DNA of 55,302 nucleotides. Origin: Candidatus Wolfebacteria bacterium RIFCSPLOWO2_01_FULL_47_17b (lineage in GTDB: Bacteria > Patescibacteriota > Minisyncoccia > UBA6257 > JAGOQP01). The notes beneath the pieces were generated by a model. The model made no database searches. It was not told the origin of the DNA and saw only the letters and a program-made list of their open reading frames with translations. Location of the stretch: positions 1-55,302 of the forward strand of contig MGIS01000010.1 in NCBI GenBank assembly GCA_001793865.1, given 5' to 3'. Positions within the stretch are counted from its first letter, which is position 1, and every line of letters begins with the position of its first letter. The position numbers and the translations under genes are program-made. Of this stretch, positions 1 to 50,224 are shown piece by piece.

Positions 1-2744
1 GGAGAAGGGCGGGGGCTGGGAGAGCGTTTGATGGGAGAGCCGCCTCCACCGCCACCTCCGCCCGATCCTCCGCCGCCTCCTGATGATTGAGTGGGGGTTG
101 GGGAAGCTTGCGGGGTGGGCGAAGGAGATACAACTGAAGCTGAAGATGTGAGCTCCAGAGATGCAAGCTGGATGTTATATTCACGACCGGTGATCGTAAG
201 CGTATGCGTACCTGCGGTGAGTGTCCAGACCATGGGATCAAATTCGTTTGTATCAAAAGTGCCGGTGCCACGCAGGGATGCCAGATAGGTTGTATACGAG
301 GTACTTTGGCGCAGGTCGGATGTGTGATAGTCGTCCGTTGCGATATCAGCATCCCAGCCCAGATACAAGGAATCCTTTCCCCCGTCGGGCGCAATGGTGG
401 TAATGCGAAGCCGATACTCTCCGGTTGCGGGGATGGAAAATCGATAGGTTGCTTTTCCTTCTCCGGTGGGTGTGGTGATGTAGCTGGTGTCTACAGCCGT
501 CATAGGGGCCGTGAGGGTTCCTTGGTGGGCGGGAATGGTGGTATTGATGGAAAATATGGGAGTATTGCCTTGTGTCGGCGAAGGTGTGGCTTGATACTGA
601 TTGATCGTAACAGCAATGCCTGCCGAGGTGGTTTGCGCGTTACCGTCATCAGTTGCTTTAGCGATGAGGGTGTAGCTTCCGGCGGGAGGATTGGACCAGG
701 TATACGTATAGGGGGATGAAGCGTCTTCTCCTAGTTTGGTGGATTCTCTGAAGAATTCTACTTTGGTAATGGTGCCATCAGAGTCGGATGCGGACGCGCT
801 CAGCGTAAGAGATGATCCTGCGGGATGGGAGGCATTATTGGTTGGGAAGGTTATAGATACAGAGGGAGGGGTATTTTGAGGAGAGGAAGATGGGGAGGGT
901 GGCGTATATGTAGCACCGTATTCATACGCGCCTATATCAGGCTTTGATCCTCCGTACGGAAGCGATACGCCTTGACCGGAACTCCACGAAAGAGACGTAT
1001 TGACCGTCAGGGTATTTGAACCGTAGTTTACGGATGTGATTCGAGCAGTTTGCGATCCAATCTGTATTTCATCTCCTTGCACGATCCTCCAGCCGTCCAT
1101 GAAATAGCGGGCATCTTGGACAGGGATGGATGTACCGCTACCAGCGTCTCTGGTGGTAGTAAGAAAATCTCCCGCATCTCGCGCCGGTGAGTTGCTTTGA
1201 ATTGCAAAATTGCCTGCTGAAGGATTTATAAATTGAGGATTGCCGCCTATGTTGTTGCTGAACATGAAGCGGGTAACCGCAGATGCGGCCTCTGCCATGG
1301 TATACTTGCTATTCAAGTACTCAAAAACCTTCTCATTACTGTTCTCCACGATGTTATTTGCCCACACGTCGCCTGAAGGAGCCGGAGGAACGGGTGACCC
1401 TTCCGCCCACTGGAAGTACTTTATGACAGTGTCCCCGTCCTTGTGCGTGCCTACGCCGTTGTTGTACAGTATGTTGTTCTTAAAGATGTTGTCCCCATAG
1501 ATGCCGAGCGTGGAGCCGGCAGGACGCCAGTAAATGCCCGCATTAATGACTATATTGTAATTATTATAGAAGTTATTATTGTAAACTGCGTTACCGTTGA
1601 CATTGTTGACAAGCAGTCCTTGTTCGGGATGCCAAGCGCCACCTTCGCCTCCCCAAACGGAGGAACTGCTCCAGTACTGCCTGTCGCCCGAAAGCTGGAC
1701 AGTGTTATGCCTATATATTCCATACGGCTGCTCGGCATGCCAGGCCTCGCCACTATCCCCTCTTCCGCCAGACGCGTCACTATAATCCCGGGGGTCTGTT
1801 GGATCTAGAGTATTTCCGCTGCCGCACTTTTCAAAATAGTTCCCGTCAAAAACGTTGTGGTGGGCCCCCACTTGCACCGCAATGCAGTGATGCCAGTCGC
1901 TTACCAAGTAGTTATTCTTCACGATGTTATGATGGGGGTCGCGGTCATCACCGTTGCCCAGTCCCCCTAATAGTATCAGGGTGTGCGAACCCTGCTCCAG
2001 CAGGTTGTTCTCTATCAGGTTATGGTGTGAAGATCTAAGTATCTCTATCAGATCCTGGTAGCCATCGTTCCAACCAACCAGCCTGTTATTTCGTATGATG
2101 GAATACGAAGTACCCGATCCTCCGCCAAGCTGTACAGCAGGGTTAGAGTTGCTTCCTGTGAACTCCCCGTTCTCAATTATTATGTGATCGCTGTTCCGCA
2201 TGTAGGCGTAGTGGGCGGCATTCATATTTATGCCGGACACCGTGATGTATGACCTGCCCTCCAGGTCCATCACGGTTGTCAGCACCACGTTTGCCCCTTG
2301 AGAAGCTTTGTAGGTTATCCTCGCGGATTCCGAGGAACCGCTCCTTGCAGGCTTTATCTGATTCGTCCAGTCGTATGTGCCAGAAGCCAGGAGCACCGTG
2401 TCCCCAGCTTGGAGTATGCTGTTGGCCTTGGAGATCGTCTTCCATGGCTGGCTCTGCGTACCAGGATTATTGTCATTTCCGGATGTGGAAATGTAATACA
2501 TATTCCCGCTACCAAGCGTAGCACCCGCTCCTCTGGTGCTTACATAATTCACATCCGCGGGGCAGGTTGAAACACGCTCGCCTGCTTCAATAATGCCGTT
2601 TCCGCACGCAGATCCTCCTATTTGTGCTGTTAGGGGGAAAGATTTGCTTTGAAACGAATCGGATGAAATATAGAGAAAGATATTCGCCGCGACAAAAGCC
2701 AAAATGCCTATTGAAGCAATAGTACGTGTATATTTGGGCTGCAT
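1..2744 (-). CDS. Large secreted protein, 3'-truncated by the window edge: N-terminal signal/TM, right-handed beta-helix (DUF1565-like), Ig-like domain, S/T/P and poly-Gly linker
   Basis: Absent from the ORF track because there is no stop in the window. ATG at 2744 reads MQPKYTRTIASIGILAFVAANIF...YYISTSGNDNNPGTQSQPWKTISKA..LQAGDTVLL. The same frame reaches GGGGGSGGGGGGGSPIKRSPSPRPS at position 1, matching the linker of the paralogs at 8635 and 11358. Confidence 0.85.
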   Translation of the reverse strand, partial: MQPKYTRTIASIGILAFVAANIFLYISSDSFQSKSFPLTAQIGGSACGNGIIEAGERVSTCPADVNYVSTRGAGATLGSGNMYYISTSGNDNNPGTQSQPWKTISKANSILQAGDTVLLASGTYDWTNQIKPARSGSSESARITYKASQGANVVLTTVMDLEGRSYITVSGINMNAAHYAYMRNSDHIIIENGEFTGSNSNPAVQLGGGSGTSYSIIRNNRLVGWNDGYQDLIEILRSSHHNLIENNLLEQGSHTLILLGGLGNGDDRDPHHNIVKNNYLVSDWHHCIAVQVGAHHNVFDGNYFEKCGSGNTLDPTDPRDYSDASGGRGDSGEAWHAEQPYGIYRHNTVQLSGDRQYWSSSSVWGGEGGAWHPEQGLLVNNVNGNAVYNNNFYNNYNIVINAGIYWRPAGSTLGIYGDNIFKNNILYNNGVGTHKDGDTVIKYFQWAEGSPVPPAPSGDVWANNIVENSNEKVFEYLNSKYTMAEAASAVTRFMFSNNIGGNPQFINPSAGNFAIQSNSPARDAGDFLTTTRDAGSGTSIPVQDARYFMDGWRIVQGDEIQIGSQTARITSVNYGSNTLTVNTSLSWSSGQGVSLPYGGSKPDIGAYEYGATYTPPSPSSSPQNTPPSVSITFPTNNASHPAGSSLTLSASASDSDGTITKVEFFRESTKLGEDASSPYTYTWSNPPAGSYTLIAKATDDGNAQTTSAGIAVTINQYQATPSPTQGNTPIFSINTTIPAHQGTLTAPMTAVDTSYITTPTGEGKATYRFSIPATGEYRLRITTIAPDGGKDSLYLGWDADIATDDYHTSDLRQSTSYTTYLASLRGTGTFDTNEFDPMVWTLTAGTHTLTITGREYNIQLASLELTSSASVVSPSPTPQASPTPTQSSGGGGGSGGGGGGGGSPIKRSPSPRPS

Positions 2745-2785
2745 ACATACAGTATAGCATACCAAACCCGAACTTTTATGTGTAT

Positions 2786-2820
2786 AAAAAAGACCGTGAG
2801 CGGGCAACGCACGGCCTTCG
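2786..2820 (-). terminator. Probable intrinsic terminator of the 2846-3793 gene
   Basis: Minus-strand GC-rich stem (GGCCGTG...CACGGTC) followed by a T-run. Confidence 0.55.
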
Positions 2821-2845
2821 GCGTTTTGTTAAAGTAAGAGAAAAC

Positions 2846-3793
2846 TCACTTTAACAACACCATTTTTTTAGTAATTTTACCTTCATTGGTTTCAAGCGTA
2901 TAAAAGTACGTTCCGCTTGAAAGACTTGAGGCATCAAACTGGATATCATATTCCCCGGCCGGCTTTTCTTCATTCACCAGAGTTACAATTTCGTTCCCTA
3001 AGACATTATACACCGTTATTTTTATTCGTCCGGTATACGGTATACGATATACGATATACGTATTCGGATTGAACGGGTTCGGATAATTCTGATGAAGCGC
3101 AAATTTTTCCGGTGTAGCGGTTGGGTCATCAACACCGGTAATGGAATCTCCAAACGAATCAACGATTGTTATGGTTCCATTATAGTCATATTGATAACGA
3201 ATATTATCAAGTATAAAACTGGATGTGGCTACGGCTTGCGTTGAAGATATTGCAAGAACATCTACATCAATATTCGCAATGGTTCCTTTCTGATGTTCCT
3301 CTGGGATATCAATAACGATAGTCTCCCATTCATTAATCGCTCTTCTAGTAACACTTACGTATACCAGATCCCCGATCTTGAGAACAAAATTGCGTTCACC
3401 AGCAAGTCTTTTCTCACTTGCAAATATCCGGATTTCATCAAAAGCAATTTTTGCTAGTTTCCCAAGTGAAGTTTGAATAATTATACCAACGGAGATACTT
3501 AGAGAATCAGCTCCAGTTAAACTTGTCAATCTTCCATCAAGTAATACAGCCATCGGAGTAGAATGCGAAGATCCTCTCCAATATTTCCCACCGGTAAAAT
3601 AATTGGCTAAACCGTTCCATTCACTGGAGCCAGATAAGCTGAAAAGCCCCGCGGAACTTCCGTGCGTTGCATAATCAGAAGTTATGGAATGGTTTACGGA
3701 AACATTTGTGCCATATTGTCCGGGTTGTGAATTCCACTGCCCGAAAACCTGTACAGGAATTAGAAAAACGAAAAGAAACGATAAAAGTTTCAT
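2846..3793 (-). CDS. Secreted protein with a C-terminal T9SS type A sorting (Por secretion tail)-like domain
   Basis: Signal peptide MKLLSFLFVFLIPVQVFG; C-terminus FALHQNYPNPFNPNT...VYNVLGNEIVTLVNEEKPAGEY...LSSGTYFY...TKKMVLLK. Confidence 0.8.
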   Translation of the reverse strand: MKLLSFLFVFLIPVQVFGQWNSQPGQYGTNVSVNHSITSDYATHGSSAGLFSLSGSSEWNGLANYFTGGKYWRGSSHSTPMAVLLDGRLTSLTGADSLSISVGIIIQTSLGKLAKIAFDEIRIFASEKRLAGERNFVLKIGDLVYVSVTRRAINEWETIVIDIPEEHQKGTIANIDVDVLAISSTQAVATSSFILDNIRYQYDYNGTITIVDSFGDSITGVDDPTATPEKFALHQNYPNPFNPNTYIVYRIPYTGRIKITVYNVLGNEIVTLVNEEKPAGEYDIQFDASSLSSGTYFYTLETNEGKITKKMVLLK

Positions 3794-16522: not shown

Positions 16523-16530
16523 AAGGTTAA

Positions 16531-16620
16531 TTATGAATTTCGAATTATGAATTTCGAATCAATTTTTAAATTCAAAAATTAGAAACTGAATCAAAATTAA
16601 AAATTTATAATTTAAAATTA
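16531..16620. repeat. AT-rich heptamer-built inverted element (family also at 25305, 26691, 33380, 50131)
   Basis: (AATTTCG)-like units followed by (CRAAATT)-like units. Confidence 0.6.
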
Positions 16621-16625
16621 CGTTC

Positions 16626-18089
16626 TTACCCTGTAAGAACGTTTATATCCGCTTGGAATTCCTGCGCACGGGCTACGACGCGCGCGCCGTACGTTTCAAG
16701 GTAGTTCTGCCAATTTCCTCCAGCATAATACTTGGCCGCAGCCATTTTCTCGCTTGCAATATTCCCATTAACCGCTCCCGCGCTCTTGAGGTACAACGCG
16801 GTCGCCACAAACGCATCAAGATTCCTCCACGGGCTTGCCGGCTTATTCCCAGTTATCTGGGCTATGCGATCTTTATACCCCACCCACGTGGATGGAATGA
16901 ACTGCGCGGGCCCCATAGCACCTCCGTAGGCGCCATCTCGTGGGATCGGGCAGGAAACAAACACCCCCGCGGGATCAAGCCCGAGTTCTTTGGTGATCGC
17001 CAAAAAGTGCGGGATATCCCGCGTCGGGTGCATGGTTGTTTTATTCGTCGCTTGCGCCGGATAGTAAGGATTTACATCATATTTGCATTTTCCCACATTG
17101 CGTCCGAGCGCGGATTCACGGTCAAGCACCGCCAAGACCAAGGCCGGCCGCACCCCGGTCGCATCCGCGGAAATCTTTGCAAGGTTGTACGCTTCCCCGA
17201 ACGAAAGCTCGCCTCCGCCCAGAAGCTCATACAACCGGCTCCGAATCTGCGCAGCGGTTTTTTTCTGTTCAGCAACCACCGTCTGGTATTTCGACTCCTG
17301 TCCCTTGGTTACGGCAAGCAAGTTCTTTTTTTCGCTTTCAACGCCCTTGGCACTCTGCTGTTGCTGCTGCTGATACAATCGGAGCTGTTCAGCATCTTCG
17401 TATTGCAGCGCGAGCGACTCCTTTTGATTTAGAAGCTGATTTTTAAGGTCGATCACCTTAACCAAAGTTTGACGCAAGCTGTCCTGAAGAGCAAGCAAGT
17501 TATTCACATCCAAGAAGAAATCTGAAAATTTCGGATTCGCCATAACCAGTTCGAGCATACTTTGATTGTCATGCTCGTACAACGTCTGCAAAATAGAAGA
17601 AATTGAATCTTTATATTCCAGGATGCTTGTCTCAGTGGTCGTTATCTCGGACTTCGTACTTTCTATGTCAGAGTCAAGCCGTTGAAGCGTCAGGGTTACC
17701 GCTTTTATCTGAGCATTAAGTTTGGCGATCTTGGCATTCAACGTATTAATTTCGGATTGCAATGTCCTGCCCTGGCTCTGATATCTTGCGATTTCCGCCT
17801 CGTTCTCGGCTATTTCAGCCTCAAGCCGTTTCAGTTCCGCCTCAAGCTCAGCCCGCTCTTTTTCGGTGGGAGCCGCGGCAAAAAGCTCTCCCGTGCGGTC
17901 GATCGGCGCATGCGCAAGGCCGAATAAAAAGGAAAGAATTGCTACGGAATACAAAGCATAACGCAGTATCTTTTTCGCGGGAACCGAAAACACGCGCATC
18001 TCACGAAGCTCCACCCGCTTGGGGAACCGCTCCGGCTCAATAACGGCGTTTTTTCGGCGAACATCAAACAAAGGCTTTCCGTCTGTCAT
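16626..18089 (-). CDS. Coiled-coil (PcsB-like) protein with C-terminal lytic transglycosylase (SLT_2/MltB-like)
   Basis: Long heptad coiled coil; catalytic ES motif; GAMGPAQFIPSTW; DAFVATALYL. Confidence 0.88.
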   Translation of the reverse strand: MTDGKPLFDVRRKNAVIEPERFPKRVELREMRVFSVPAKKILRYALYSVAILSFLFGLAHAPIDRTGELFAAAPTEKERAELEAELKRLEAEIAENEAEIARYQSQGRTLQSEINTLNAKIAKLNAQIKAVTLTLQRLDSDIESTKSEITTTETSILEYKDSISSILQTLYEHDNQSMLELVMANPKFSDFFLDVNNLLALQDSLRQTLVKVIDLKNQLLNQKESLALQYEDAEQLRLYQQQQQQSAKGVESEKKNLLAVTKGQESKYQTVVAEQKKTAAQIRSRLYELLGGGELSFGEAYNLAKISADATGVRPALVLAVLDRESALGRNVGKCKYDVNPYYPAQATNKTTMHPTRDIPHFLAITKELGLDPAGVFVSCPIPRDGAYGGAMGPAQFIPSTWVGYKDRIAQITGNKPASPWRNLDAFVATALYLKSAGAVNGNIASEKMAAAKYYAGGNWQNYLETYGARVVARAQEFQADINVLTG

Positions 18090-22578: not shown

Positions 22579-25299
22579 TCACGAACATCCGCCTGAGCTC
22601 CCCCCGCACTGCAAACACGTCATGCACGTGCCGGTGCGCACCATCATGCCTCCGCAATTGCGGCATACCGTACCAGCTTGTACGACATTTTTCTTCGGAA
22701 CGCTCATTAATGTCGCCGTAACCGGAGCTTTTTCTCGCTCCTCTTTCTGCACCACCTTTCCTTCCGGCGCTTGTTCAGTCAGAAGTTTCGGTCCCATGCC
22801 GAATTCAAACAGATCCTCCGCAGAAAGGAACGTAAGCGCCAAATAGCGAAATATATAATCAACAATACTCGTGGCAATGCGGATATCGGGATTTTCCGTA
22901 AAACCAGCGGGCTCGAACCGGCTATGGATGAATTTGTGCGCGAGCGCCTTTAACGGCACCCCATACTGCAAAGCCATCGAAACAGAAATTGCGAACGCGT
23001 CCAAAAGTCCCGACAGCGTGCTCCCTTGCTTCGCCATACGGATAAATGTTTCCGCAAGCGTGCCGTCCTCGTACGTGCTGTAGGTAAGGTAGCCCTCGTG
23101 CCCCGCGATGACAAACTTATGCGTCTGGGACATACGAGTCGCGGGCAGCCGCCTGCGGGCAATCCCTTTCGCCTGCGCGGATCCCTTTGTATCTTTCGAT
23201 GTATTGCCCGAGGTGCTCAGCGGCTGAGCCGCTTTCGAGCCGTCCCGATACACCGCAAATGCCTTAATACCCAGTTTCCATGCCATCACATACGCCTCTT
23301 CAATCTCCTTTTTGGTTACGTCGTGGGGCATATTGAATGTTTTGGATATCGCGCCCGAAATAAATGGCTGTACCGCGCCCACCATTCGCACGTGGCCTTT
23401 CCACGATATCGAGCGTGTTCCCTTTTCGGGCCGTACCGCGCAATCAAATATCGACAAATGTTTTTCTTTAAACTTTGGCGCTCCTTCCACCGTTCCTTGT
23501 TCGGCAATATACGCAACAATATCTTTTGCTTCCGACTTCGTGTATCCCAGCCGGCGAAGCGATTCCTCGACGCTCGCGTTTACGATCTTCATCCAACCGC
23601 CGCCGACAAGCTGTTTCATTTTTATGAGCGAAAAGTCGGGTTCAATCCCCGTCGTGTCGCAATCCATCATAAACGAGATGGTCCCCGTCGGCGCGATCAC
23701 GGTTGCCTGCGAATTTCGAAATCCATATGCCGTTCCCGTTGCCAAAGCCTCGTCCCAAACTCCCTGCGCTTCTTTGGCGAGTTTTGTATCATCCACATGA
23801 CCCGATTTTATTTTCCCCGCCTCGAGGCCATGTTGTTTGATAACCTCAAGCATCGGCGCGCGATTCTTGGCATATCCGCTGAACGGCTTCATACGGCGGG
23901 CAATCTCCGCGGAATAGCGGTACGCCTCTCCGGACATCAACGACGAGATTGATCCCGCCCACGCGCGAGCTTCCTCCGAGTCATACGCGATACCCTTCGT
24001 CATCAAAAGCGCACCGAGGTTGGAAAATCCGAGCCCGAGTTCCCGGAATGCAATCGCGTTTTTTGTTATGAGTTCGGTCGGATAGCTGGATCGTCCCACG
24101 ATAATTTCCTGCGCGAGTATGAATATATCCACCGTATGCTTGAACCCTTCCACATCGAACGTACCGTCCTCGCGCAAGAACTTCATCAGGTTGATGGATG
24201 CGAGATTGCACGCCGAATTGTCCAGATGCATGTACTCAGAGCAAGGATTGGACGCGTTGATCCGCCCCGTGTTCGGACACGTGTGCCATTTATTAATAAT
24301 CGTATCGAATTGCACTCCGGGATCGCCGCATTCCCATGCAGCCTCCGCAATGTCGCCCAGAAGCGTACGGGCTTTGTATGTATCGGCTGGTTTTCCGTTT
24401 TGTATATATTTTGTTTTCCATTCTTCGTCCTCTTCCACGGCACGCATAAATTCATCGGTGAGCCGCACCGAGTTGTTCGCGTTCTGGAATTGGATGGAAT
24501 TCCATGCTTCGTTATTCAAATCAGACATATTGTATCCCGCTTCTATAAGCGCGCGTATCTTTTTCTCTTCATCCGCTTTGGATCGGATGAAATCCATCAC
24601 ATCCGGATGATCGATCCCCAGCACAACCATTTTCGCGGCCCGCCGCGTGGACCCGCCCGATTTAATCATCCCGGCGACCGAATCGGCTCCGCGCATAAAC
24701 GAAACCGGCCCCGACGCGTATCCGCCAACCGACAATTGTTCTTTTCTGGACCGAAGATTTGAAAGACTCACGCCCGCTCCAGATCCTCCTTTAAATATCA
24801 TCCCTTCGGTTCGTATCCAATCTAAAATAGAAGGCATCGTATCCTCAACCGCCAGAATAAAGCACGCCGAGCACTGCGGATGCTCCTTAATGCCGACATT
24901 AAACCATACCGGCGAGTTGAACGACCCCTTCTGGTGCACAAGCACGTGCATCAATTCGTCTTCAAATGTTCTGGCTTGCGCGGCACCGGCAAAGTAGCCG
25001 CCTTCCTCACCCCAGCGGCGAATCGTCTGAGTCACGCGCGAAAGCAGCTGCTTGAGGCTTTTCTCACGCTCCGGCGTACCGAGCTTGCCTCGAAAATATT
25101 TGGATACCGTAATATTGACCGCGTGCAATGACCAAAAATCGGGAAATTCAACTCCCTTTTGCTCAAAGACCTTCGAACCACCCACGGCTGCATCCCGCTG
25201 TACCCAGCGGACCTCGTCAAACGGATGCAAACACAATTTTGTAAACATTCTCTTAATCGGCAATGTATACACATTTTTCTTTTTCAAGATTTTTTGCAT
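22579..25299 (-). CDS. nrdJ: Class II (adenosylcobalamin-dependent) ribonucleotide reductase
   Basis: FNSPVWFN, CSACF, SNPCSE, IAPTGTI, C-terminal CxxC...CxxC. Confidence 0.95.
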   Translation of the reverse strand: MQKILKKKNVYTLPIKRMFTKLCLHPFDEVRWVQRDAAVGGSKVFEQKGVEFPDFWSLHAVNITVSKYFRGKLGTPEREKSLKQLLSRVTQTIRRWGEEGGYFAGAAQARTFEDELMHVLVHQKGSFNSPVWFNVGIKEHPQCSACFILAVEDTMPSILDWIRTEGMIFKGGSGAGVSLSNLRSRKEQLSVGGYASGPVSFMRGADSVAGMIKSGGSTRRAAKMVVLGIDHPDVMDFIRSKADEEKKIRALIEAGYNMSDLNNEAWNSIQFQNANNSVRLTDEFMRAVEEDEEWKTKYIQNGKPADTYKARTLLGDIAEAAWECGDPGVQFDTIINKWHTCPNTGRINASNPCSEYMHLDNSACNLASINLMKFLREDGTFDVEGFKHTVDIFILAQEIIVGRSSYPTELITKNAIAFRELGLGFSNLGALLMTKGIAYDSEEARAWAGSISSLMSGEAYRYSAEIARRMKPFSGYAKNRAPMLEVIKQHGLEAGKIKSGHVDDTKLAKEAQGVWDEALATGTAYGFRNSQATVIAPTGTISFMMDCDTTGIEPDFSLIKMKQLVGGGWMKIVNASVEESLRRLGYTKSEAKDIVAYIAEQGTVEGAPKFKEKHLSIFDCAVRPEKGTRSISWKGHVRMVGAVQPFISGAISKTFNMPHDVTKKEIEEAYVMAWKLGIKAFAVYRDGSKAAQPLSTSGNTSKDTKGSAQAKGIARRRLPATRMSQTHKFVIAGHEGYLTYSTYEDGTLAETFIRMAKQGSTLSGLLDAFAISVSMALQYGVPLKALAHKFIHSRFEPAGFTENPDIRIATSIVDYIFRYLALTFLSAEDLFEFGMGPKLLTEQAPEGKVVQKEEREKAPVTATLMSVPKKNVVQAGTVCRNCGGMMVRTGTCMTCLQCGGSSGGCS

Positions 25300-25304
25300 A
25301 GATA

Positions 25305-25395
25305 TTATAATTTTAAATTATGAATTTTTAATTTCGATTCAATTTCGAGTTTCTGAATTTCAAAATTGATTCAAAATTCAAAATTCGAAATTCAT
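25305..25395. repeat. AT-rich heptamer inverted element
   Basis: Same units as 16531; fills the ftsZ-nrdJ intergenic region. Confidence 0.6.
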
Positions 25396-25397
25396 AC

Positions 25398-26669
25398 TTA
25401 CTTGCGTTTCTTTTTTCTAAGAAACGCAGGAATATCCCATATGCTCTCGGACGACTCCTCCTCCGACGCCTTATCCCCCGACGCTTCGGTCGGGACCTCG
25501 ACCTCGCGTCGAGGCTCGTTCTCAAACTTTGGTTCCAGTCGCTTCAGCTCAACCTCCCGCTCCAGAGGCGGCTCCTCCATGGAAAATATCTGTTTTTGTG
25601 ACATGCCAAGCGAACCAAATTCGCCAAATAAGCTCACATTCTTGGCGTACGAGGACCCAAATCCGGTCGCGATAAGCGTTACTTTGATCTGGCCCTTATT
25701 GAGCTTACGATCGTAATACGTGCCGAAAATGATCCGCGCCGACGGATCGGCCTGCTCGGCTATCTGTCGCGCGATTTCATGCACTTCGTTGAGCGTCATA
25801 TCGCGCCGCCCCGACACGCTGAATAGCACTCCCCTCGCTCCTTCGATCGATGCCTCCAGAAGCGGCGACTGCAGAGCGGCCGTCGCCGCGGCTTGCGCGC
25901 GCCCTTTGCCGTGGGCCGACCCCACGCCGATAATGGACGTGCCGGAGTTTTGCACGATCGCCTTGATGTCAGCGAAATCAACATTGATCACGCCCGGCGT
26001 CATAATGATTTCGGTAATACCAAGTACCGCGTTTTTGAGTATCTCGTCTATCGTCTCGAACGCCCGTGCAAGAGATGTATCTTTGGTGATGATTGAAAAT
26101 ACTTTATCGTTGGAGATGGTTATATACGTATCAACCCGGTCTTTGAGCTTTACGATCGCGTCTTGAGCGATCTGCGCACGGTGCACGCCCTCGAATGAAA
26201 ACGGCTTGGTAACAATAGCCACTGTCAAGATGCCGAGCTCCTGAGCAATCTCCGCAACCACCGGAGTCGCGCCGCTCCCCGTGCCGCCGCCGAATCCAGC
26301 CGTCAAAAAGATGATATCCGCGCCGCTCAGCGCCTGAGCGATCTCCTCCCTGTTTTCCTCCGCAGCCGCGCGACCCAGCTCAGGATTCATACCTGCTCCG
26401 AGTCCGCGGGTAATTTGCTTTCCGATGTAGAGCTTCTTGCGCGCATGACATTGCTCCAGATCCTGTATGTCCGTATTGATGGCAATAAGTTCCACACCCC
26501 GCGGGAATACCTGGCTCATCCGAGTTACCGCGTTGCCTCCGCCGCCCCCCACGCCAACCACTTTTATTTTGGCGATGGGGCTGTTCTTCTCGTGGCGCGT
26601 GGCATGACGTGTTGTTTTGTGTACCATTTCACGCTTTTCCTTTTTTTTATGTTTTATTTTTCTCTTCAT
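25398..26669 (-). CDS. ftsZ: Cell division protein FtsZ
   Basis: VGVGGGGGNA, GGGTGSG, INVDFAD, C-terminal DIPAFLRK. Confidence 0.98.
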   Translation of the reverse strand: MKRKIKHKKKEKREMVHKTTRHATRHEKNSPIAKIKVVGVGGGGGNAVTRMSQVFPRGVELIAINTDIQDLEQCHARKKLYIGKQITRGLGAGMNPELGRAAAEENREEIAQALSGADIIFLTAGFGGGTGSGATPVVAEIAQELGILTVAIVTKPFSFEGVHRAQIAQDAIVKLKDRVDTYITISNDKVFSIITKDTSLARAFETIDEILKNAVLGITEIIMTPGVINVDFADIKAIVQNSGTSIIGVGSAHGKGRAQAAATAALQSPLLEASIEGARGVLFSVSGRRDMTLNEVHEIARQIAEQADPSARIIFGTYYDRKLNKGQIKVTLIATGFGSSYAKNVSLFGEFGSLGMSQKQIFSMEEPPLEREVELKRLEPKFENEPRREVEVPTEASGDKASEEESSESIWDIPAFLRKKKRK

Positions 26670-26690
26670 AAAATAATTTAAGACCTAAAA

Positions 26691-26792
26691 TAATTTCGAA
26701 TTTCGAGTTCTGAGTTTCGAATCAAATTCGAATGTTTTAATTTTAGAAATTCAGTCATTTAAAATTGAATCGAAATTAGAAATTCGAAATTA
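26691..26792. repeat. AT-rich heptamer inverted element
   Basis: TAATTTCGAATTTC...GAAATTCGAAATTA terminal inverted repeat between ftsA and ftsZ. Confidence 0.65.
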
Positions 26793-26794
26793 TC

Positions 26795-28057
26795 TTATTC
26801 GTTTGCGCGTAATATTCGAATAATTCGCTTGAACCACGACTCATTGACATCCAGCGGCGTATGCGCAAACGACCGCGCAACATACTTTTTATTGGTCTGA
26901 TCACTGCGCTGCAGTACAAGCCCGCACACCGCCGCGTACGACGGATCGTCCGTTTCGGCAAGGCCGCTATGCGCCTTCTCGAATTCATCCGTATTCGGAA
27001 ATCCTATTTTTACCGGGCTTTTAAGCTCCTCGCGCGCGATATCGGCCAGTCCTTTCAGTTTTGCTCCCCCGCCAACCAGCACCACCCCTGCAGGTAGTTT
27101 CCCAAAAACACCCAAAGATTTCAACTCATCCTGCACAAGTCCAAAGACCTCCCGCACCCGAGCTTCAATGATCTCCGCTACAAACTTCAACGATGTCTGT
27201 GAACTGAGCTCGGGTTCGTACTGCGACATATCAAGCTTGTCCCGCACCGACACGTCTCGCGCATTCGCGTTGCCGTATTCTATCTTTATCAGTTCCGCCG
27301 TGAGGATCGTACAGCGCAAGCCAACCGCAAGATCGTTGGTAATGTGTCCCGATCCAATCGGAAGTACTTTTGCCACAAGCAGGCGCCCGTCCTGAAACAC
27401 AGCGACGCCCGTCGTGCCATAACCGATGTCCAGAAGCACCGCGCCCAATTCCTTTTGACTCTTCGTAAGTGTCGCACGTTCGCTCGCAAGCGGCGTGAAT
27501 ATCACACTGCCCAGAAAATCCCCTTTCTTGCCCAGCACCAGATCGGTTACCCTGCGAAAATTACGATACACCGATGAAAAAGCCGAGATCAGAACCACGT
27601 TTGCCTCCAGCTTTTTACCCGAAAGCCCAACCACGTCGGTGCCTTCCACTTCGATACCGTCAATCACAAATTCGCGCGGGAATGAATGAATAATCTGCCA
27701 TCCAGCGGGAATCTGTATCGCCATAGATTCCTGTATGACGCGATCCACGTCCTCGCTTAAGATTTCAAAATCAGGACGCGGGATAGAAATAGCGGCGCGC
27801 GACAGATGAAATTGCACCCGCGTGCCTGAGATGCCGAACACGATGTTGCGCAAACATTTCTTATCGAACTGCTTGATGATCGAAAGCACTTCAAACAGAC
27901 CCTTGACTGTTTCTTCCGGATACACGATCTCACCTTTTTTAATTCCCTTCGATTCCCGCTTGATCGTCTTTACTAATACCAGCGAACCGTCTTTGCGCTG
28001 CTCGGCAATAATGCCCTTGATATATGCGGATCCCAGATCTATAGCGGTAATAAACAT
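26795..28057 (-). CDS. ftsA: Cell division protein FtsA
   Basis: AIDLGS, LDIGYGTT, GHITNDLA, VLVGGGAKL; directly upstream of ftsZ; start moved to MFITA. Confidence 0.95.
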   Translation of the reverse strand: MFITAIDLGSAYIKGIIAEQRKDGSLVLVKTIKRESKGIKKGEIVYPEETVKGLFEVLSIIKQFDKKCLRNIVFGISGTRVQFHLSRAAISIPRPDFEILSEDVDRVIQESMAIQIPAGWQIIHSFPREFVIDGIEVEGTDVVGLSGKKLEANVVLISAFSSVYRNFRRVTDLVLGKKGDFLGSVIFTPLASERATLTKSQKELGAVLLDIGYGTTGVAVFQDGRLLVAKVLPIGSGHITNDLAVGLRCTILTAELIKIEYGNANARDVSVRDKLDMSQYEPELSSQTSLKFVAEIIEARVREVFGLVQDELKSLGVFGKLPAGVVLVGGGAKLKGLADIAREELKSPVKIGFPNTDEFEKAHSGLAETDDPSYAAVCGLVLQRSDQTNKKYVARSFAHTPLDVNESWFKRIIRILRANE

Positions 28058-28194
28058 TGAATGTATTGTACGCAAAACAGCTCGTATGCGCAAACACAAT
28101 ACTTTGCATTATTGTCCTTTCGGGTCATAATGTTTTTATACACTTTCATCCCCGCCTGCCATTCCCGCGAATGCAGGAATCCATCCCTATTCCG

Positions 28195-29169
28195 TCATTC
28201 TGAATGAACATGAAGAATCTTTAGTTGTAGTTTGTGTGCATTCCCATGCTTCAATAACCCCAGATACGAATTAAGTGTTTCGGGAGTTGGTGATTTCTGT
28301 ATGCGTTTCAACATTCGTCTCTTTGTCGCCGTCCGCAATACGCGATGGTCGGGGAAATGCACCCAGCCGAGGAAATCCACTCCTGATCCTATGGTCTTAA
28401 TGAACAGCTTGTTTTCATGTAGCGAAAGCTTTAGTTTTTCTTTGAAAAACTTTTGTATTGTGGGAATTATATTCTCTAAATCTCTTTTTTCATTTGATAA
28501 AAACGCAAAATCATCCGCATATCGTATGAAGTATTTTGCTTTGAGCGCGTGCTTCACAAACTGGTCAAATTCGTTCATATACACGTTCGCGAATAGTTGG
28601 GAGGTAAGATTGCCAAACGGAAGTCCTTTTCTAGCCCCTTTTTCAGTTTCAAAGCTTCTGATAATCCCCTCGCAAAGCCAGACAATATCTGTGTCTACAA
28701 TGTACTTTTTGAGAATCGAAAGTAAAATATCATGGTTAATATTCGCAAAGAACTTTCTGATGTCACATTTGAGAACCCAACATTGTTTTTTATTGTTTTT
28801 ACTCACAATGTACACAAATTTCCGAAATCGATTCATTGCCTTATGAATGCCCTTTCCTTTACGAGATGAGAATGAATCACATTGAAACTTTCGGTTGAAA
28901 AATGGGTATAAAATTCTGTGCACCGCATGGTGTAGAAATCTATCTCTGACCGGAGCGATGTGCAGAATGCGAGGTTTCGGGTCGGATATTTTTCTGACTT
29001 TGTATCCACCGTGTTTGTATGTTTTGTGCACTAGATCGGTATGCAGACTGATAAGATTGTGCATAAGATATTGTCCAAATCGTAATACATCACCTCGTGA
29101 TCTCTTGCCGCACAGAAATTCTTTCCATGCATCAAGCATATTTTCGAGAGAAGTGATAGAATCGTACAT
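28195..29169 (-). CDS. DGR reverse transcriptase
   Basis: KPR...VRDR..HHA, LKCDIRKFF, GLPFGNLTSQ (DGR-type xGxxxSQ), RYADD, GVDFLG. The start could lie further upstream, since the frame is open to 29298. Confidence 0.95.
   Translation of the reverse strand: MYDSITSLENMLDAWKEFLCGKRSRGDVLRFGQYLMHNLISLHTDLVHKTYKHGGYKVRKISDPKPRILHIAPVRDRFLHHAVHRILYPFFNRKFQCDSFSSRKGKGIHKAMNRFRKFVYIVSKNNKKQCWVLKCDIRKFFANINHDILLSILKKYIVDTDIVWLCEGIIRSFETEKGARKGLPFGNLTSQLFANVYMNEFDQFVKHALKAKYFIRYADDFAFLSNEKRDLENIIPTIQKFFKEKLKLSLHENKLFIKTIGSGVDFLGWVHFPDHRVLRTATKRRMLKRIQKSPTPETLNSYLGLLKHGNAHKLQLKILHVHSE
29154..29162 (+). promoter_or_regulatory. Extended -10 (TGATAGAAT) 7 nt before the avd ATG; likely a leaderless promoter
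   Basis: Same spacing as many other genes in this window. Confidence 0.55.
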
Positions 29170-29580
29170 ATGAAAAATATATTTACAAACGTTTCCTTGA
29201 CCCCCCCCCCGAAGCTTCTTCCGGTACTGCAGAAACTGAAAACGGTATATAGTCAGTGGTATATATATTACCACATCCTTCCAAAACCGCATCGGCATTC
29301 GTTGGGGTGGCGAATTGATTCGTTATTTATTGAAACAATAGAAGCGGTAGCGACCGCGGGATTTCTTGCGAGAGAAGAGAAGTTGCCGTATGTGCGATAT
29401 GCAATACGGAAACTGGATACAATACAAGTGTTGTTGCTTGTGTTGTGGGAGAATAAGTCGCTTACGAGTAAGCAGTATATTCTAATTGCGCAGGGAGTAG
29501 AAGAGGTTGGTAGAAATCTTGGAGGATGGAGCGGAAAGCTCAGAAAAGAAAACTCTCCCACAAAGCAGGAGAGAAAATGA
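29170..29580 (+). CDS. avd: DGR accessory variability determinant (Avd/bAvd-like four-helix bundle)
   Basis: 136 aa, basic; LPKPHRHSLGWRID...KLDTIQVLL...EEVGRNLGGW; lies between TR and RT. Confidence 0.88.
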   Translation: MKNIFTNVSLTPPPKLLPVLQKLKTVYSQWYIYYHILPKPHRHSLGWRIDSLFIETIEAVATAGFLAREEKLPYVRYAIRKLDTIQVLLLVLWENKSLTSKQYILIAQGVEEVGRNLGGWSGKLRKENSPTKQERK

Positions 29581-29586
29581 AGTGAG

Positions 29587-29720
29587 TTGCGCGGACGGCA
29601 GAACACCCAGCGGTTATTGCCATTCCAGAAGTTGTCAGGGTTGCCGTTGTTGCCATTCAGCCAACGTCCATCGTCATTGCATTCGACGTTGAACACGTTG
29701 AGATTGCCATCGGAATCGGT
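29587..29720 (-). ncRNA. DGR template repeat, TR copy 1 (followed by the IMH*/spacer side)
   Basis: 134 bp; differs from the VR only at TR adenines; 12 AAY codons. Confidence 0.93.
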
Positions 29721-29963
29721 TTTATATGCGGCATCTTCCATACCTTCATAACCATCCCTTGATCCCCCGATAGGCGGACTCTCAGGATTGTATCGCATTC
29801 GGCATCTTAAATGCCTTAATGCCGCATACCAAATAACTTCATTTTTTGTTGAAGTGTCTGCATACACCACCCTATCCGAAACCGTGATCGCGGATATTCC
29901 CGATGTATGGATACTGGGTTCGGCAGCGGGAAACCGTGATCGCCCGCGTATGCGCCTAGTTCC
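29721..29963 (-). ncRNA. Structured 5' leader of the DGR template RNA (second copy at 30202-30444)
   Basis: Several stems, including TATGCGGCAT/ATGCCGCATA (29725-29734 / 29819-29828) and twin hairpins with an identical 12-nt insert. Confidence 0.6.
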
Positions 29964-29969
29964 ATTGCT

Positions 29970-29978
29970 ATTCTAGCA
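29970..29978 (-). promoter_or_regulatory. Extended -10 (TGCTAGAAT), candidate promoter of the TR/RT transcript (second copy at 30451-30459)
   Basis: Lies just downstream of the post-VR hairpin and upstream of the structured leader. Confidence 0.5.
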
Positions 29979-30067
29979 TACAAAAAGCTCCGCAACTAAG
30001 TTGCGGAGCAGGGTTAAGGACTAAGGATCTAAAAGGTTTAAGACCCTAAGTTCTTAGTTTTAATTAC

Positions 30068-30201
30068 TTGCGCGGACGGCAGAACACCCAGCGGTTATTG
30101 CCATTCCAGAAGTTGTCAGGGTTGCCGTTGTTGCCATTCAGCCAACGTCCATCGTCATTGCATTCGACGTTGAACACGTTGAGATTGCCATCGGAATCGG
30201 T
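30068..30201 (-). ncRNA. DGR template repeat, TR copy 2 (TR sequence with a VR-type 3' flank)
   Basis: Identical to TR1, but followed by ...CGCAAGTAA and the post-VR hairpin. Confidence 0.8.
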
Positions 30202-30467
30202 TTTATATGCGGCATCTTCCATACCTTCATAACCATCCCTTGATCCCCCGATAGGCGGACTCTCAGGATTGTATCGCATTCGGCATCTTAAATGCCTTAA
30301 TGCCGCATACCAAATAACTTCATTTTTTGTTGAAGTGTCTGCATACACCACCCTATCCGAAACCGTGATCGCGGATATTCCCGATGTATGGATACTGGGT
30401 TCGGCAGCGGGAAACCGTGATCGCCCGCGTATGCGCCTAGTTCCATTGCTATTCTAGCATACAAAAA

Positions 30468-30490
30468 GCTCCGCAACTAAGTTGCGGAGC
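30468..30490 (-). terminator. Post-VR hairpin: intrinsic terminator and/or DGR cruciform (duplicate at 29987-30009)
   Basis: GCTCCGCAAC-TTA-GTTGCGGAGC then TTTTTG, about 55 nt after the target stop. Confidence 0.7.
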
Positions 30491-30544
30491 AGGGTTAAGG
30501 ACTAAGGATCTAAAAGGTTTAAGACCCTAAGTTCTTAGTTTTAA

Positions 30545-31174
30545 TTACTTGCGCGGACGGCAGAACACCCAGCGGTAATCGCCACCCCAGAAGTAGTCAG
30601 GGTTGCCGTAGTTGCCATTCAGCCAACGACCATCGTCATTGCATTCGACGTCGAACACGTAGAGAGTGCCATCGGAATCGGTAATGGGCTCCATGGCTAC
30701 GAGAAGCCATTCTCCGAGAGGTTGATCCGGATACTGCAATCTGAGCTGTGGACCGACTTCTGCTGGACAGAATTCCAGACCGAGCTGTAGCGCACGATCA
30801 TAGATATCTTTGCGAGTTGCTCCCTTTTTGAAACCGAGTTCAGCAACGGATATATTCACTAGATCAATCTCTTCCTTGATTTCCGCGGTTTTGAATTCTG
30901 GTTTGCCTAGAATATCATTTCCCCAATCACCGATTTTACAACCTGCTTTTTTGAGAGCTTTTCTGAAATCGTCAGCGGTTTTGATACCCGTGCCGATTTT
31001 TATGGTTTTCCAGATTTTGAGTTCGGGAATATTCGGTTTTATGATCCACTCGCCGGAATTAACCAATCGAACTGCCTCGTTCGGATCTTCCGATCCTGTT
31101 TGAGACATAATGTTTTTTACCAGGGCATTTAATTTTCCCGGCAATACATCGGCAATAACAAACTCGTTTTTCAT
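30545..31174 (-). CDS. DGR target protein with C-terminal variable region (probable C-type-lectin-like fold)
   Basis: C-terminal 44 aa match the TR translation with Asn replaced by T/Y/D/G; AAGGAG SD; no signal peptide. Confidence 0.92.
   Translation of the reverse strand: MKNEFVIADVLPGKLNALVKNIMSQTGSEDPNEAVRLVNSGEWIIKPNIPELKIWKTIKIGTGIKTADDFRKALKKAGCKIGDWGNDILGKPEFKTAEIKEEIDLVNISVAELGFKKGATRKDIYDRALQLGLEFCPAEVGPQLRLQYPDQPLGEWLLVAMEPITDSDGTLYVFDVECNDDGRWLNGNYGNPDYFWGGDYRWVFCRPRK
30549..30682 (-). repeat. DGR variable repeat (VR)
   Basis: 124/134 identical to TR; all 10 mismatches are at TR adenines. Confidence 0.95.
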
Positions 31175-31270
31175 TTCTAACTCCTTTCCGCTCAGTTGCG
31201 GATTTTTTGTTTCCTCTCACCCGAGGCAGGTGGCTCTTTAAGCCGTTATTTTAATGTAAGGTACTCCATA

Positions 31271-31299
31271 AGTATATCACACTCGTTTCAAAATGTCAA
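31271..31299 (-). promoter_or_regulatory. Near-consensus sigma70 promoter of the DGR target gene
   Basis: TTGACA-17 nt-TATACT overlapping the ybeY 3' end. Confidence 0.7.
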
Positions 31300-31714
31300 T
31301 CTCCTTTTTCTCCATCTTTTCGGCGTCTTTCTTGGTTATATGATCATACCCGCACAGGTGCAGCAACCCATGCACCACCATGTGTTCGAGCGATTGATTA
31401 TTCTTTTTTATATAATCGGGAGCAATATATATTTCCCCCAACGAACGCCGAGGGCGTCCAAGGTTAAACTTCGGCCAAAGTGACCGAGGTTTAACCTTGG
31501 CCTCTTTCTCCACAAACGACAGCACATTTGTCGCTGTATCTTTCCCCCACGTCAGCTTGTTGATCCGCCGCATCTCCGAATTAGAAATCAGGAATACTTC
31601 AATAAAGACACTTTTTTTCTTTAACGCGCGAAAAACCGTTCGAGCGGTTTCTCGCACTCCCTTTTCCAAAGAAGCATATTTCCCCAACTGCGAAAAAACA
31701 GAAACGGAGTTCAT
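31277..31714 (-). CDS. ybeY: rRNA maturation RNase YbeY (with an in-frame palindromic insert)
   Basis: TNVLSF, LGEIYI, HGLLHLCGYDH. Confidence 0.95.
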   Translation of the reverse strand: MNSVSVFSQLGKYASLEKGVRETARTVFRALKKKSVFIEVFLISNSEMRRINKLTWGKDTATNVLSFVEKEAKVKPRSLWPKFNLGRPRRSLGEIYIAPDYIKKNNQSLEHMVVHGLLHLCGYDHITKKDAEKMEKKEIDILKRV

Positions 31715-50077: not shown

Positions 50078-50130
50078 ATATATATGTGTATTATAGCACA
50101 GTCATTGTACAATGGTGTGGGTATCGAACT

Positions 50131-50224
50131 AATTTCGAATTTCGAGTTCCGAATTTCGAATCAAATTCTAATGTTTTAAAATTCATGAATTCAAAATTGA
50201 ATCGAAATTAAAAATTCAAAATTT
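50131..50224. repeat. AT-rich heptamer inverted element
   Basis: Near-copy of 26691-26792, between pilB and pilT. Confidence 0.65.

Follow-up and report, generated by a model that had tools for sequence, protein, structure and literature searches.

A complete, probably working diversity-generating retroelement of the Patescibacteria type in a Candidatus Wolfebacteria genome

Diversity-generating retroelements (DGRs) of the candidate phyla radiation (CPR) have a characteristic layout. The order of template repeat (TR), accessory variability determinant (avd) and reverse transcriptase (RT) known as architecture B3, TR-(avd)-RT, is reported for 90% of CPR DGRs in the consulted part of Wu et al. 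(2018, PMC5758913). The consulted part of Roux et al. (2021, PMC8144416) describes DGR clade 2 as cellular, mostly aquatic and restricted to Patescibacteria. The present analysis concerns a DGR at positions 28195..31299 of a 55,302-nucleotide stretch of Candidatus Wolfebacteria bacterium RIFCSPLOWO2_01_FULL_47_17b (contig MGIS01000010.1, assembly GCA_001793865.1), referred to here as the window. The element is a genuine, complete DGR of the known Patescibacteria/CPR type, and it is apparently working.

Read along the minus strand, the locus consists of a promoter-like site, a 209-aa open reading frame (ORF) that contains the variable repeat (VR), a CTTNR stretch, a hairpin, a non-coding stretch, TR copies and the RT gene, while avd lies on the plus strand. 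This is the B3 order of TR, opposite-strand avd and then RT, with the target upstream on the TR/RT strand. Judged by the portions of Wu et al. (2018) and Roux et al. (2021) that were consulted, the element shares with described CPR DGRs the order and strands of target/VR, TR, inverted avd and RT, the type of host (here a 0.73-Mb genome), the presence of several DGRs in one genome, and a target that has no recognisable domain, transmembrane segment or signal peptide. Nothing essential differs from those accounts, in whose trees the present RT was not placed. The type of element is a common CPR kind, and both its layout and its domain-less targets are already in print. As an explanation of the locus as a whole, a complete Patescibacteria-type DGR of architecture B3, target/VR - TR - (avd) - RT, can be held with high confidence. 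An earlier note on this DNA had called a complete DGR, which is borne out by the adenine-only spectrum of changes, the similarity of the RT, the match of Avd to the DivGenRetAVD profile and a second allele of the VR. The same note gave the sense order as target-VR-hairpin-TR-avd-RT; the parts are all there, but avd is on the plus strand and not in the same sense as the rest.

The DGR of Bordetella phage BPP-1 (mtd-avd-TR-brt) provides the second comparison. Both elements have an adenine-specific transfer from TR to VR with an AAY-rich TR, a VR at the C-terminus of a protein with a C-type lectin (CLec) fold (a probable assignment in the window), and an Avd together with an RT containing GxxxSQ and YxDD. 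In both, TR and VR share a G+C-rich 3' end after which their flanks diverge. The two also have in common a stem-loop immediately after the TR and a pairing of upstream with downstream strands, as far as the consulted part of the BPP-1 work extends (bioRxiv 10.1101/2023.10.23.563531). In contrast to BPP-1, the window element is cellular and not phage-borne, and its avd is inverted; because of this inversion, the TR is preceded in the RNA by a dedicated non-coding leader of ~250 nt rather than by avd mRNA. The 3' stem-loop of the window element lies within avd in antisense, a terminator hairpin follows the VR at a distance of ~55 nt with a CTTNR array before it, and the target is a soluble-looking protein of 209 aa instead of a tail-fibre tip. 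The earlier designation of the element as of the BPP-1 type applies to the adenine-specific signature and not to the layout, which is the CPR-typical B3 with an inverted avd.

The VR (30549..30682, minus strand) forms the last 44 codons of the target gene before the final Lys and stop codon, that is, codons 165-208 of 209. When it is aligned with the TR on the minus strand (VR 30682..30549), 10 of 134 positions differ and all ten are TR adenines, whereas the 99 non-adenine positions of the TR are all identical in the VR. With 35 A in the 134 nt of the TR, the hypergeometric chance that every mismatch falls on an adenine is 5e-7. In the frame of the target ORF these changes convert N to T, Y, D, Y, Y, G, D and Y, with one silent change of GGA to GGT, and nine of the ten are non-synonymous. 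The TR contains 12 AAY codons, in which the adenines occupy codon positions 1-2. A recount agrees with the earlier note on each of these values, including the limits of the VR, the number of mismatches, the eight Asn substitutions, the single silent change and the number of AAY codons. Following the last variable site, VR and TR share 28 identical G+C-rich bases (ACCGCTGG...CGCGCAA) before their flanks diverge, an arrangement that would fit the IMH/IMH* (initiation of mutagenic homing) pattern.

The same pattern recurs elsewhere in the genome, which comprises 25 contigs with a total of 729,804 bp and has a completeness score of 100%. Searching the genome with the parts of the cassette by tblastn identified four RT loci: the window and loci on contigs C12 (83% aa identity), C23 (73%) and C24 (38%). 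Three of these belong to paralogous cassettes, in which A-type mismatches account for 10/10, 24/24 and 17/18 of the differences. The fourth RT (C24:70736-71728, locus L086), at 38% identity to the window RT, is without an adenine-biased repeat pair in a genome-wide scan. Among 80 related loci, mostly from Patescibacteria/Parcubacteria groups, 40 contain a repeat pair in which one template base accounts for at least 80% of the mismatches; in every one of the 40 it is adenine. The earlier note had also proposed a search for remote VRs. BLAST of the TR against the genome returned only the two TR copies discussed below (TRa and TRb), the VR and the TR of the C12 sister cassette (74% identity), and when the whole genome was scanned for repeat pairs with mismatches biased to one base, the three cognate pairs were the only ones returned, with no remote VR for the window TR. 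A search for the exact TR pattern in metagenome contigs gave 0 matches in a set that may not include records from the same genome.

The RT gene (28195..29169, minus strand) encodes 324 aa from MYDS..., and this start at 29169 is the most likely one, rather than the first ATG of the ORF at 29298. The protein matches Pfam RVT_1 (1.3e-28) and contains the motifs RYADD and FGNLTSQ, so that the intact YADD reported earlier is present. Its best relative of solved structure is 8ub7_A ('Reverse transcriptase'; 2.4e-37, 132 bits, residues 2-291), which we take to be the Bordetella phage RT (bRT), and the alignment of the two shares LTSQLFANVY and KPR. Group II intron and 'retron-type' RTs come next among the solved chains, at 84-85 bits. 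By sequence similarity, the RT thus appears nearer to DGR RTs than to group II intron or retron RTs. Full-length matches to the RT were found in 128 phage records, the ANMV-1 virus among them, and Bordetella phages make up 5 of the 181 matching records. A separate observation concerns the extent of variation: with 10 adenine changes, against 24 and 17, the window VR is the least altered among the three cassettes, and the position of bRT Ile 181 modulates adenine misincorporation according to the consulted part of Handa et al. (PMC7826257).

The avd gene (29170..29580, plus strand) encodes 136 aa and is inverted relative to TR and RT, with its ATG abutting that of the RT. The same inverted avd is present in the C12 and C23 cassettes. 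The protein aligns with 102 of the 104 positions of the NCBIfam profile DivGenRetAVD (7.2e-15; 55 bits, cut-off 80) and with Pfam bAvd (37.1 bits, cut-off 40). A homopolymer of ten C residues (29204..29213, plus strand) lies in the 5' end of avd at codons for TPPP. Among 36 cassettes with enough sequence (two further loci were too short), 30 have a run of 6-13 C residues at the same place in avd, with a mode of 10 (13 cassettes), and six are without one. Of the three sister cassettes, only that of the window has avd in frame with the upstream ATG; in C12 and C23 the frames of the ATG and of Avd differ, and the C12 avd has a TTG further in. The C-tract data are compatible with a slip-strand switch of avd.

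The target gene (30545..31174, minus strand) encodes a 209-aa protein with no match in Pfam or NCBIfam and with only unnamed clusters in a protein atlas. A word-indexed search at E <= 0.001 in a near-length band places it in a family of at least 1941 proteins. None of the 120 relatives listed has a precomputed Pfam domain, and the few that are named are each called 'hypothetical protein'. An alignment of 42 family members shows a conserved core from W55 to P163 followed by a hypervariable tail, in which W184, L185, W196 and F204 are fixed. The AlphaFold model (pLDDT 92.2, pTM 0.78) consists of two N-terminal helices and a probable CLec-type fold at residues 51-209, the last strands of which are formed by the VR. 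Comparison with 48,161 chains by VIA-align matched residues 51-209 mostly to C-type lectin, FGE/EgtB-type or Link-module domains, with the top value for 8oks_B (Z 6.7). The list includes Treponema denticola variable protein 1 (2y3c; model residues 51-208/209, Z 5.7, 134 residues, rmsd 3.8) and the Major Tropism Determinant P1 Variant (1yu0; Z 5.2, 116 residues, rmsd 3.6), which are presumably TvpA and Mtd, respectively. TvpA is a lipoprotein and Mtd occurs in a tail-fibre context. The window target is much smaller than either, shares 5-8% sequence identity with them, and has no such lipoprotein signal or tail-fibre context. On the basis of the model, a C-type lectin fold is probable.

The highest 19-residue Kyte-Doolittle mean of the target is 1.1, where the usual threshold is 1.6, and no signal peptide or membrane helix is evident. 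This agrees with the earlier note as to the signal peptide; its description of the protein as cytoplasmic does not follow from the lack of one. Targets of CPR clade-2 DGRs are typically without such signals, and their truly non-membrane status 'remains to be established' in the words of the consulted part of Roux et al. (2021, PMC8144416). A role of the target as a cytoplasmic ligand-binding protein is a fair guess and not a result.

The target gene appears to be bounded by its own signals. A promoter-like site, TTGACA-17-TATACT (31271..31299, minus strand), has 11 of 12 matches and a TG before the second hexamer, and agrees with the promoter given in the earlier note. Directly after the VR and stop codon is an array of CTTNR pentamers at a spacing of 7-8 nt (30495..30544, minus strand). 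Over 38 cassettes the first 70 nt after the VR contain 4.6 such pentamers on average vs 0.84 in shuffles, and the array, which corresponds in position to the IMH flank and hairpin of BPP-1, may be a mark of the acceptor. The hairpin that the earlier note had placed between VR and TR is a putative intrinsic terminator of the target gene (30468..30490, minus strand), in which a 10-bp stem with seven G-C pairs is followed by TTTTTG in the direction 30490..30468. A hairpin in the 5' untranslated region of the target gene (31187-31208, TCCGCTCAGTTGCGGA on the plus strand) is 83% complementary to the terminator region at 30464-30481.

The non-coding stretch between terminator and TR would form a structured leader of ~250 nt. 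It is present in the window as copy A (29721..29975, minus strand; -10 box TAGAAT at 29970-29975), an exact copy of 30202-30456, and as copy B (30202..30456, minus strand; -10 box at 30451-30456). The 255 nt upstream of the TR were aligned for 36 cassettes, namely the window, C12, C23 and 33 of the 40 loci with a TR/VR pair; excluded were L027 and L071 (short spacers), L046, L013, L080 and L081 (several pairs) and L009 (duplicate only). RNAalifold applied to this alignment gave 53 pairs in 9 helices, with compensatory changes in 44 of the pairs. In total, 97.1% of alignment cells are paired. The figure is 78.6% in 500 shuffles, none of which attains the observed level, and 38-47% with slid partners; the comparison is biased somewhat towards the structure, as this was derived from the same alignment that scored it. 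Two of the hairpins share a conserved loop, CGRYYACGGYTT, and a 12-bp helix closes beside the TR. Further upstream is a TAnnnT -10 box in which the T, the A and the final T are invariant in 36/36 sequences. The summed contig depth in two bins at 30331-30416 is 2000-3600 in the public sequencing runs X1-X3, vs 10-16 in the target gene, indicating that the non-coding stretch before the TR is common to very many elements in those communities.

The leader also appears to pair with the 3' flank of the TR. The CTCACTTCATTTT strand directly 3' of TRa (29574..29586, minus strand) is complementary to AAAATGAAGT in the leader, forming an inverted repeat, and complements the nearly invariant leader motif AAAATGAAG. 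In L025, L061 and L079, TAAAG is paired with CTTTA instead, a covariation of the duplex between leader and 3' flank. The energy of this duplex gives weak z-scores against shuffles (-2.4 to +1.5) because the strands are A/T-rich, and the covariation in the three loci is relied on instead. A 9-bp stem-loop with a U-run follows 13 nt after TRa (29553..29573, minus strand); it lies antisense inside the 3' end of avd, equivalent hairpins were folded in other cassettes, and it is a putative Avd-binding stem-loop or terminator of the DGR RNA. Stem-loops downstream of the TR and duplexes between upstream and downstream strands occur in 207 of 278 DGRs in the consulted part of Handa et al., where the 40 nt upstream of the TR were analysed (bioRxiv 10.1101/2023.10.23.563531). 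A literature search, covering its sources in part, found no published account of this ~250-nt leader, to which Rfam 15 likewise gave no match, and the consulted portions of Wu et al. (2018) and Roux et al. (2021) make no mention of the leader RNA, the C tract or the CTTNR array.

From these parts we infer transcript ends, priming, homing steps and a role for the target as follows. First, the target gene would use its own promoter and its own terminator. Next, the conserved -10 box just past the terminator would start a separate DGR RNA made up of the ~250-nt structured leader, the 134-nt TR, the short strand that pairs with the leader, and the 9-bp stem-loop and U-run, the stem-loop being antisense within the end of avd. 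RT and Avd would then copy the TR into cDNA, misincorporating opposite adenines. Finally, the cDNA would replace the VR up to the G+C-rich 28 bases common to TR and VR, with the result that up to 12 Asn codons could be recoded at the C-terminal face of a protein with a C-type lectin fold.

The TR is present twice in the window, at 29587-29720 and 30068-30201, within an exact tandem repeat that has a period of 481 and 509 identical bases at that offset. The first copy, TRa (29587..29720, minus strand), has its own 3' flank. The identical second copy, TRb (30068..30201, minus strand), carries the 3' flank of the VR and is without the 3' strand and stem-loop found after TRa, and TRa is for this reason taken as the functional template. 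The repeat also includes a duplicate of the terminator hairpin (29987..30009, minus strand) and a copy of the CTTNR array (30014-30063). The TR nearest the VR, which the earlier note had taken as the template, is TRb and is probably an artefact. We consider it likely that the second copy is an assembly loop caused by heterogeneity of the VR and not biology. In three public runs the depth over TR and spacer corresponds to about one copy and not two: zero-difference unitigs have depths of 11.6 and 9.55 vs 10.3 for the flanking long contig in X1, of 16.8, 15.9 and 17.5 vs 15.6 in X2, and of 10.3, 10.8 and 15.6 vs 15.2 in X3. Minority variants of the VR in which the first variable sites retain the TR base would make the branches observed, as well as the wrong turn from the VR flank into the TR.

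A real duplication is possible but clearly the less probable of the two. It would have arisen by unequal recombination between the VR and TR of sister chromosomes in their shared 28-nt 3' end, adding a spacer and a TR, and the middle copy, with its VR-type flank, could then be a gene-less acceptor or a homing decoy. The breakpoints are exactly where such a crossover would place them, and the repeat unit fits a crossover inside the shared 28 bases and, equally, an assembler that traverses a loop twice. Several points count against an artefact. Contig depth is a poor measure of copy number, as the tool itself warns; unitigs of X1-X3 terminate precisely at 30068 and 30576, which the existence of both junctions would predict, although minority VR variants account for the same breaks; and one other, independent assembly, L046 (925-2107), has the same topology of VR-spacer-TR-spacer-TR, with a period of 523 and an exact run of 530 bases. 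The VR and TR of L046 share only 7 bases beside the flank, too few for homologous recombination, which speaks against that process and for an artefact bridged by variants. In addition, the units in the window do not differ at any of 481 nt, and there are no adenine changes in the middle TR despite its acceptor-type flank. The duplication as a long cDNA product of homing was rejected, as 481 adenine-rich nt would have been copied without one change. The genomes of forty relatives do not settle the matter, as none is near-identical and 10 of the 40 have some DNA match. Downstream of the target gene of L009 there is an exact 216-nt repeat at an offset of 225 (L009:4361-4801). DGR loci seem prone to such duplicated assemblies, and the duplicated TR is a warning that active DGR loci can mislead assemblers.

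A broader proposal is that Patescibacteria clade-2 DGRs use an undescribed ribonucleoprotein and control design. This design would comprise the leader, its pairing with the 3' strand, a stem-loop or terminator antisense to avd, a C-tract switch of avd, the CTTNR array as a mark of the acceptor, a real and recurrent VR-spacer-TR-spacer-TR arrangement giving a gene-less acceptor, and a 209-aa intracellular sensor. As a whole this is unlikely. If it were true, the leader would replace the segment of avd mRNA used by the Bordetella phage, and the C tract would switch avd separately in each cassette.

The activity of the element was addressed through natural variation in Logan contigs of the public runs X1-X4. 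A 5586-nt contig of X1 matches 30583-31300 without difference, as does an X4 contig over 30399-30702, and both represent the window's allele. Five differences separate 30621-31300 from the matching contigs of X2 (5565 nt) and X3 (5548 nt). The four that are listed (30651, 30652, 30666 and 30672) are all in the VR and all at TR-adenine sites (P ~0.003, based on 16 TR-adenine positions in those 62 nt). The other difference listed in the gene, at 30985, belongs to a separate contig carrying a joint, with a depth of 38.7 in X1. There are therefore at least two VR alleles on the same backbone. The check for adenine-confined variation that the earlier note had suggested for metagenomic reads gave, when run on contigs, four of four listed variants at TR-adenine sites, at contig level and for two alleles.

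Some observations weigh against a complete and active DGR. Both Avd scores are under the curated cut-offs. The RT motif FGNLTSQ keeps GxxxSQ, but its first residue is Phe and not I/V/L, and [I/V/L]GxxxSQ is the DGR RT signature in the consulted part of Handa et al. (PMC7826257). The structural Z scores of the target (5-7) are middling and below the tool's safe level, and Foldseek of the target model against the PDB gave no match at E <= 0.001. With regard to variation, Logan contigs drop rare variants and were used without raw reads; X2 and X3, which have the same allele, may share one campaign, two alleles are documented and 31 further rows are unlisted; and the fifth difference of the X2 and X3 contigs is also unlisted.

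The complete DGR is nonetheless probably working. It is quite improbable that it is a recently silenced relic, with intact parts, no present homing and VR alleles that are old standing variation. Consistent with a relic, the VR has changes at only 10 of the 35 TR adenines, a lower number than the 24 and 17 mismatches of the sister cassettes, and the documented alleles number only two. The Phe of the window RT is at the position of bRT Ile 181, where the sister on C12 has LGNLTSQ, and the substitution I181N lowers misincorporation by bRT in the consulted part of Handa et al. (PMC7826257). A relic is difficult to reconcile with the state of the locus, as every ORF is open, the C10 tract leaves avd in frame, and the 99 non-adenine positions are all identical between TR and VR. 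Furthermore, the alleles differ at adenine sites only, on a backbone without other listed difference, and unitigs break inside the VR in every run, fitting more alleles than those listed. That VR and TR are an ordinary duplicated gene fragment beside an unrelated group II intron or retron RT, with the adenine pattern due to chance, has next to no probability: the best NCBIfam model for the RT is a group II intron RT/maturase (155 bits, far under the cut-off of 300), but the adenine pattern has P ~5e-7 and is found again in two sister cassettes and 40 of 80 related loci, 8ub7_A is a closer relative of the RT than the group II intron RTs are, and Rfam 15 over 28000-31400 at E <= 1 returned three chance-level rows and no group II intron or retron RNA family.

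The cassette is flanked by ORFs at 25398-28099 and 31277-31714, which from their translations we take to be ftsZ- and ftsA-like and ybeY-like, respectively. A dispersed intergenic repeat of ~100 bp is present in dozens of copies in the 0.73-Mb genome and matches in both orientations, indicating that it is palindromic. Copies in the window are at 26690-26792, 50127-50223, 25273-25400 and 16528-16631, and others are found at many places on contigs C4, C12, C23, C24 and C25.

As a DGR, the element adds little to those already described, and its value is that of a clean example. It is found in an apparently complete 0.73-Mb genome with three sister cassettes and a fourth RT, and a second natural allele of its VR has been observed. 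Its target belongs to a family of at least 1941 members, for which cellular location is an acknowledged question in the consulted part of Roux et al. (2021, PMC8144416). Concrete starting points for reconstituting a CPR DGR are provided by the conserved leader RNA and the acceptor-side repeat array.

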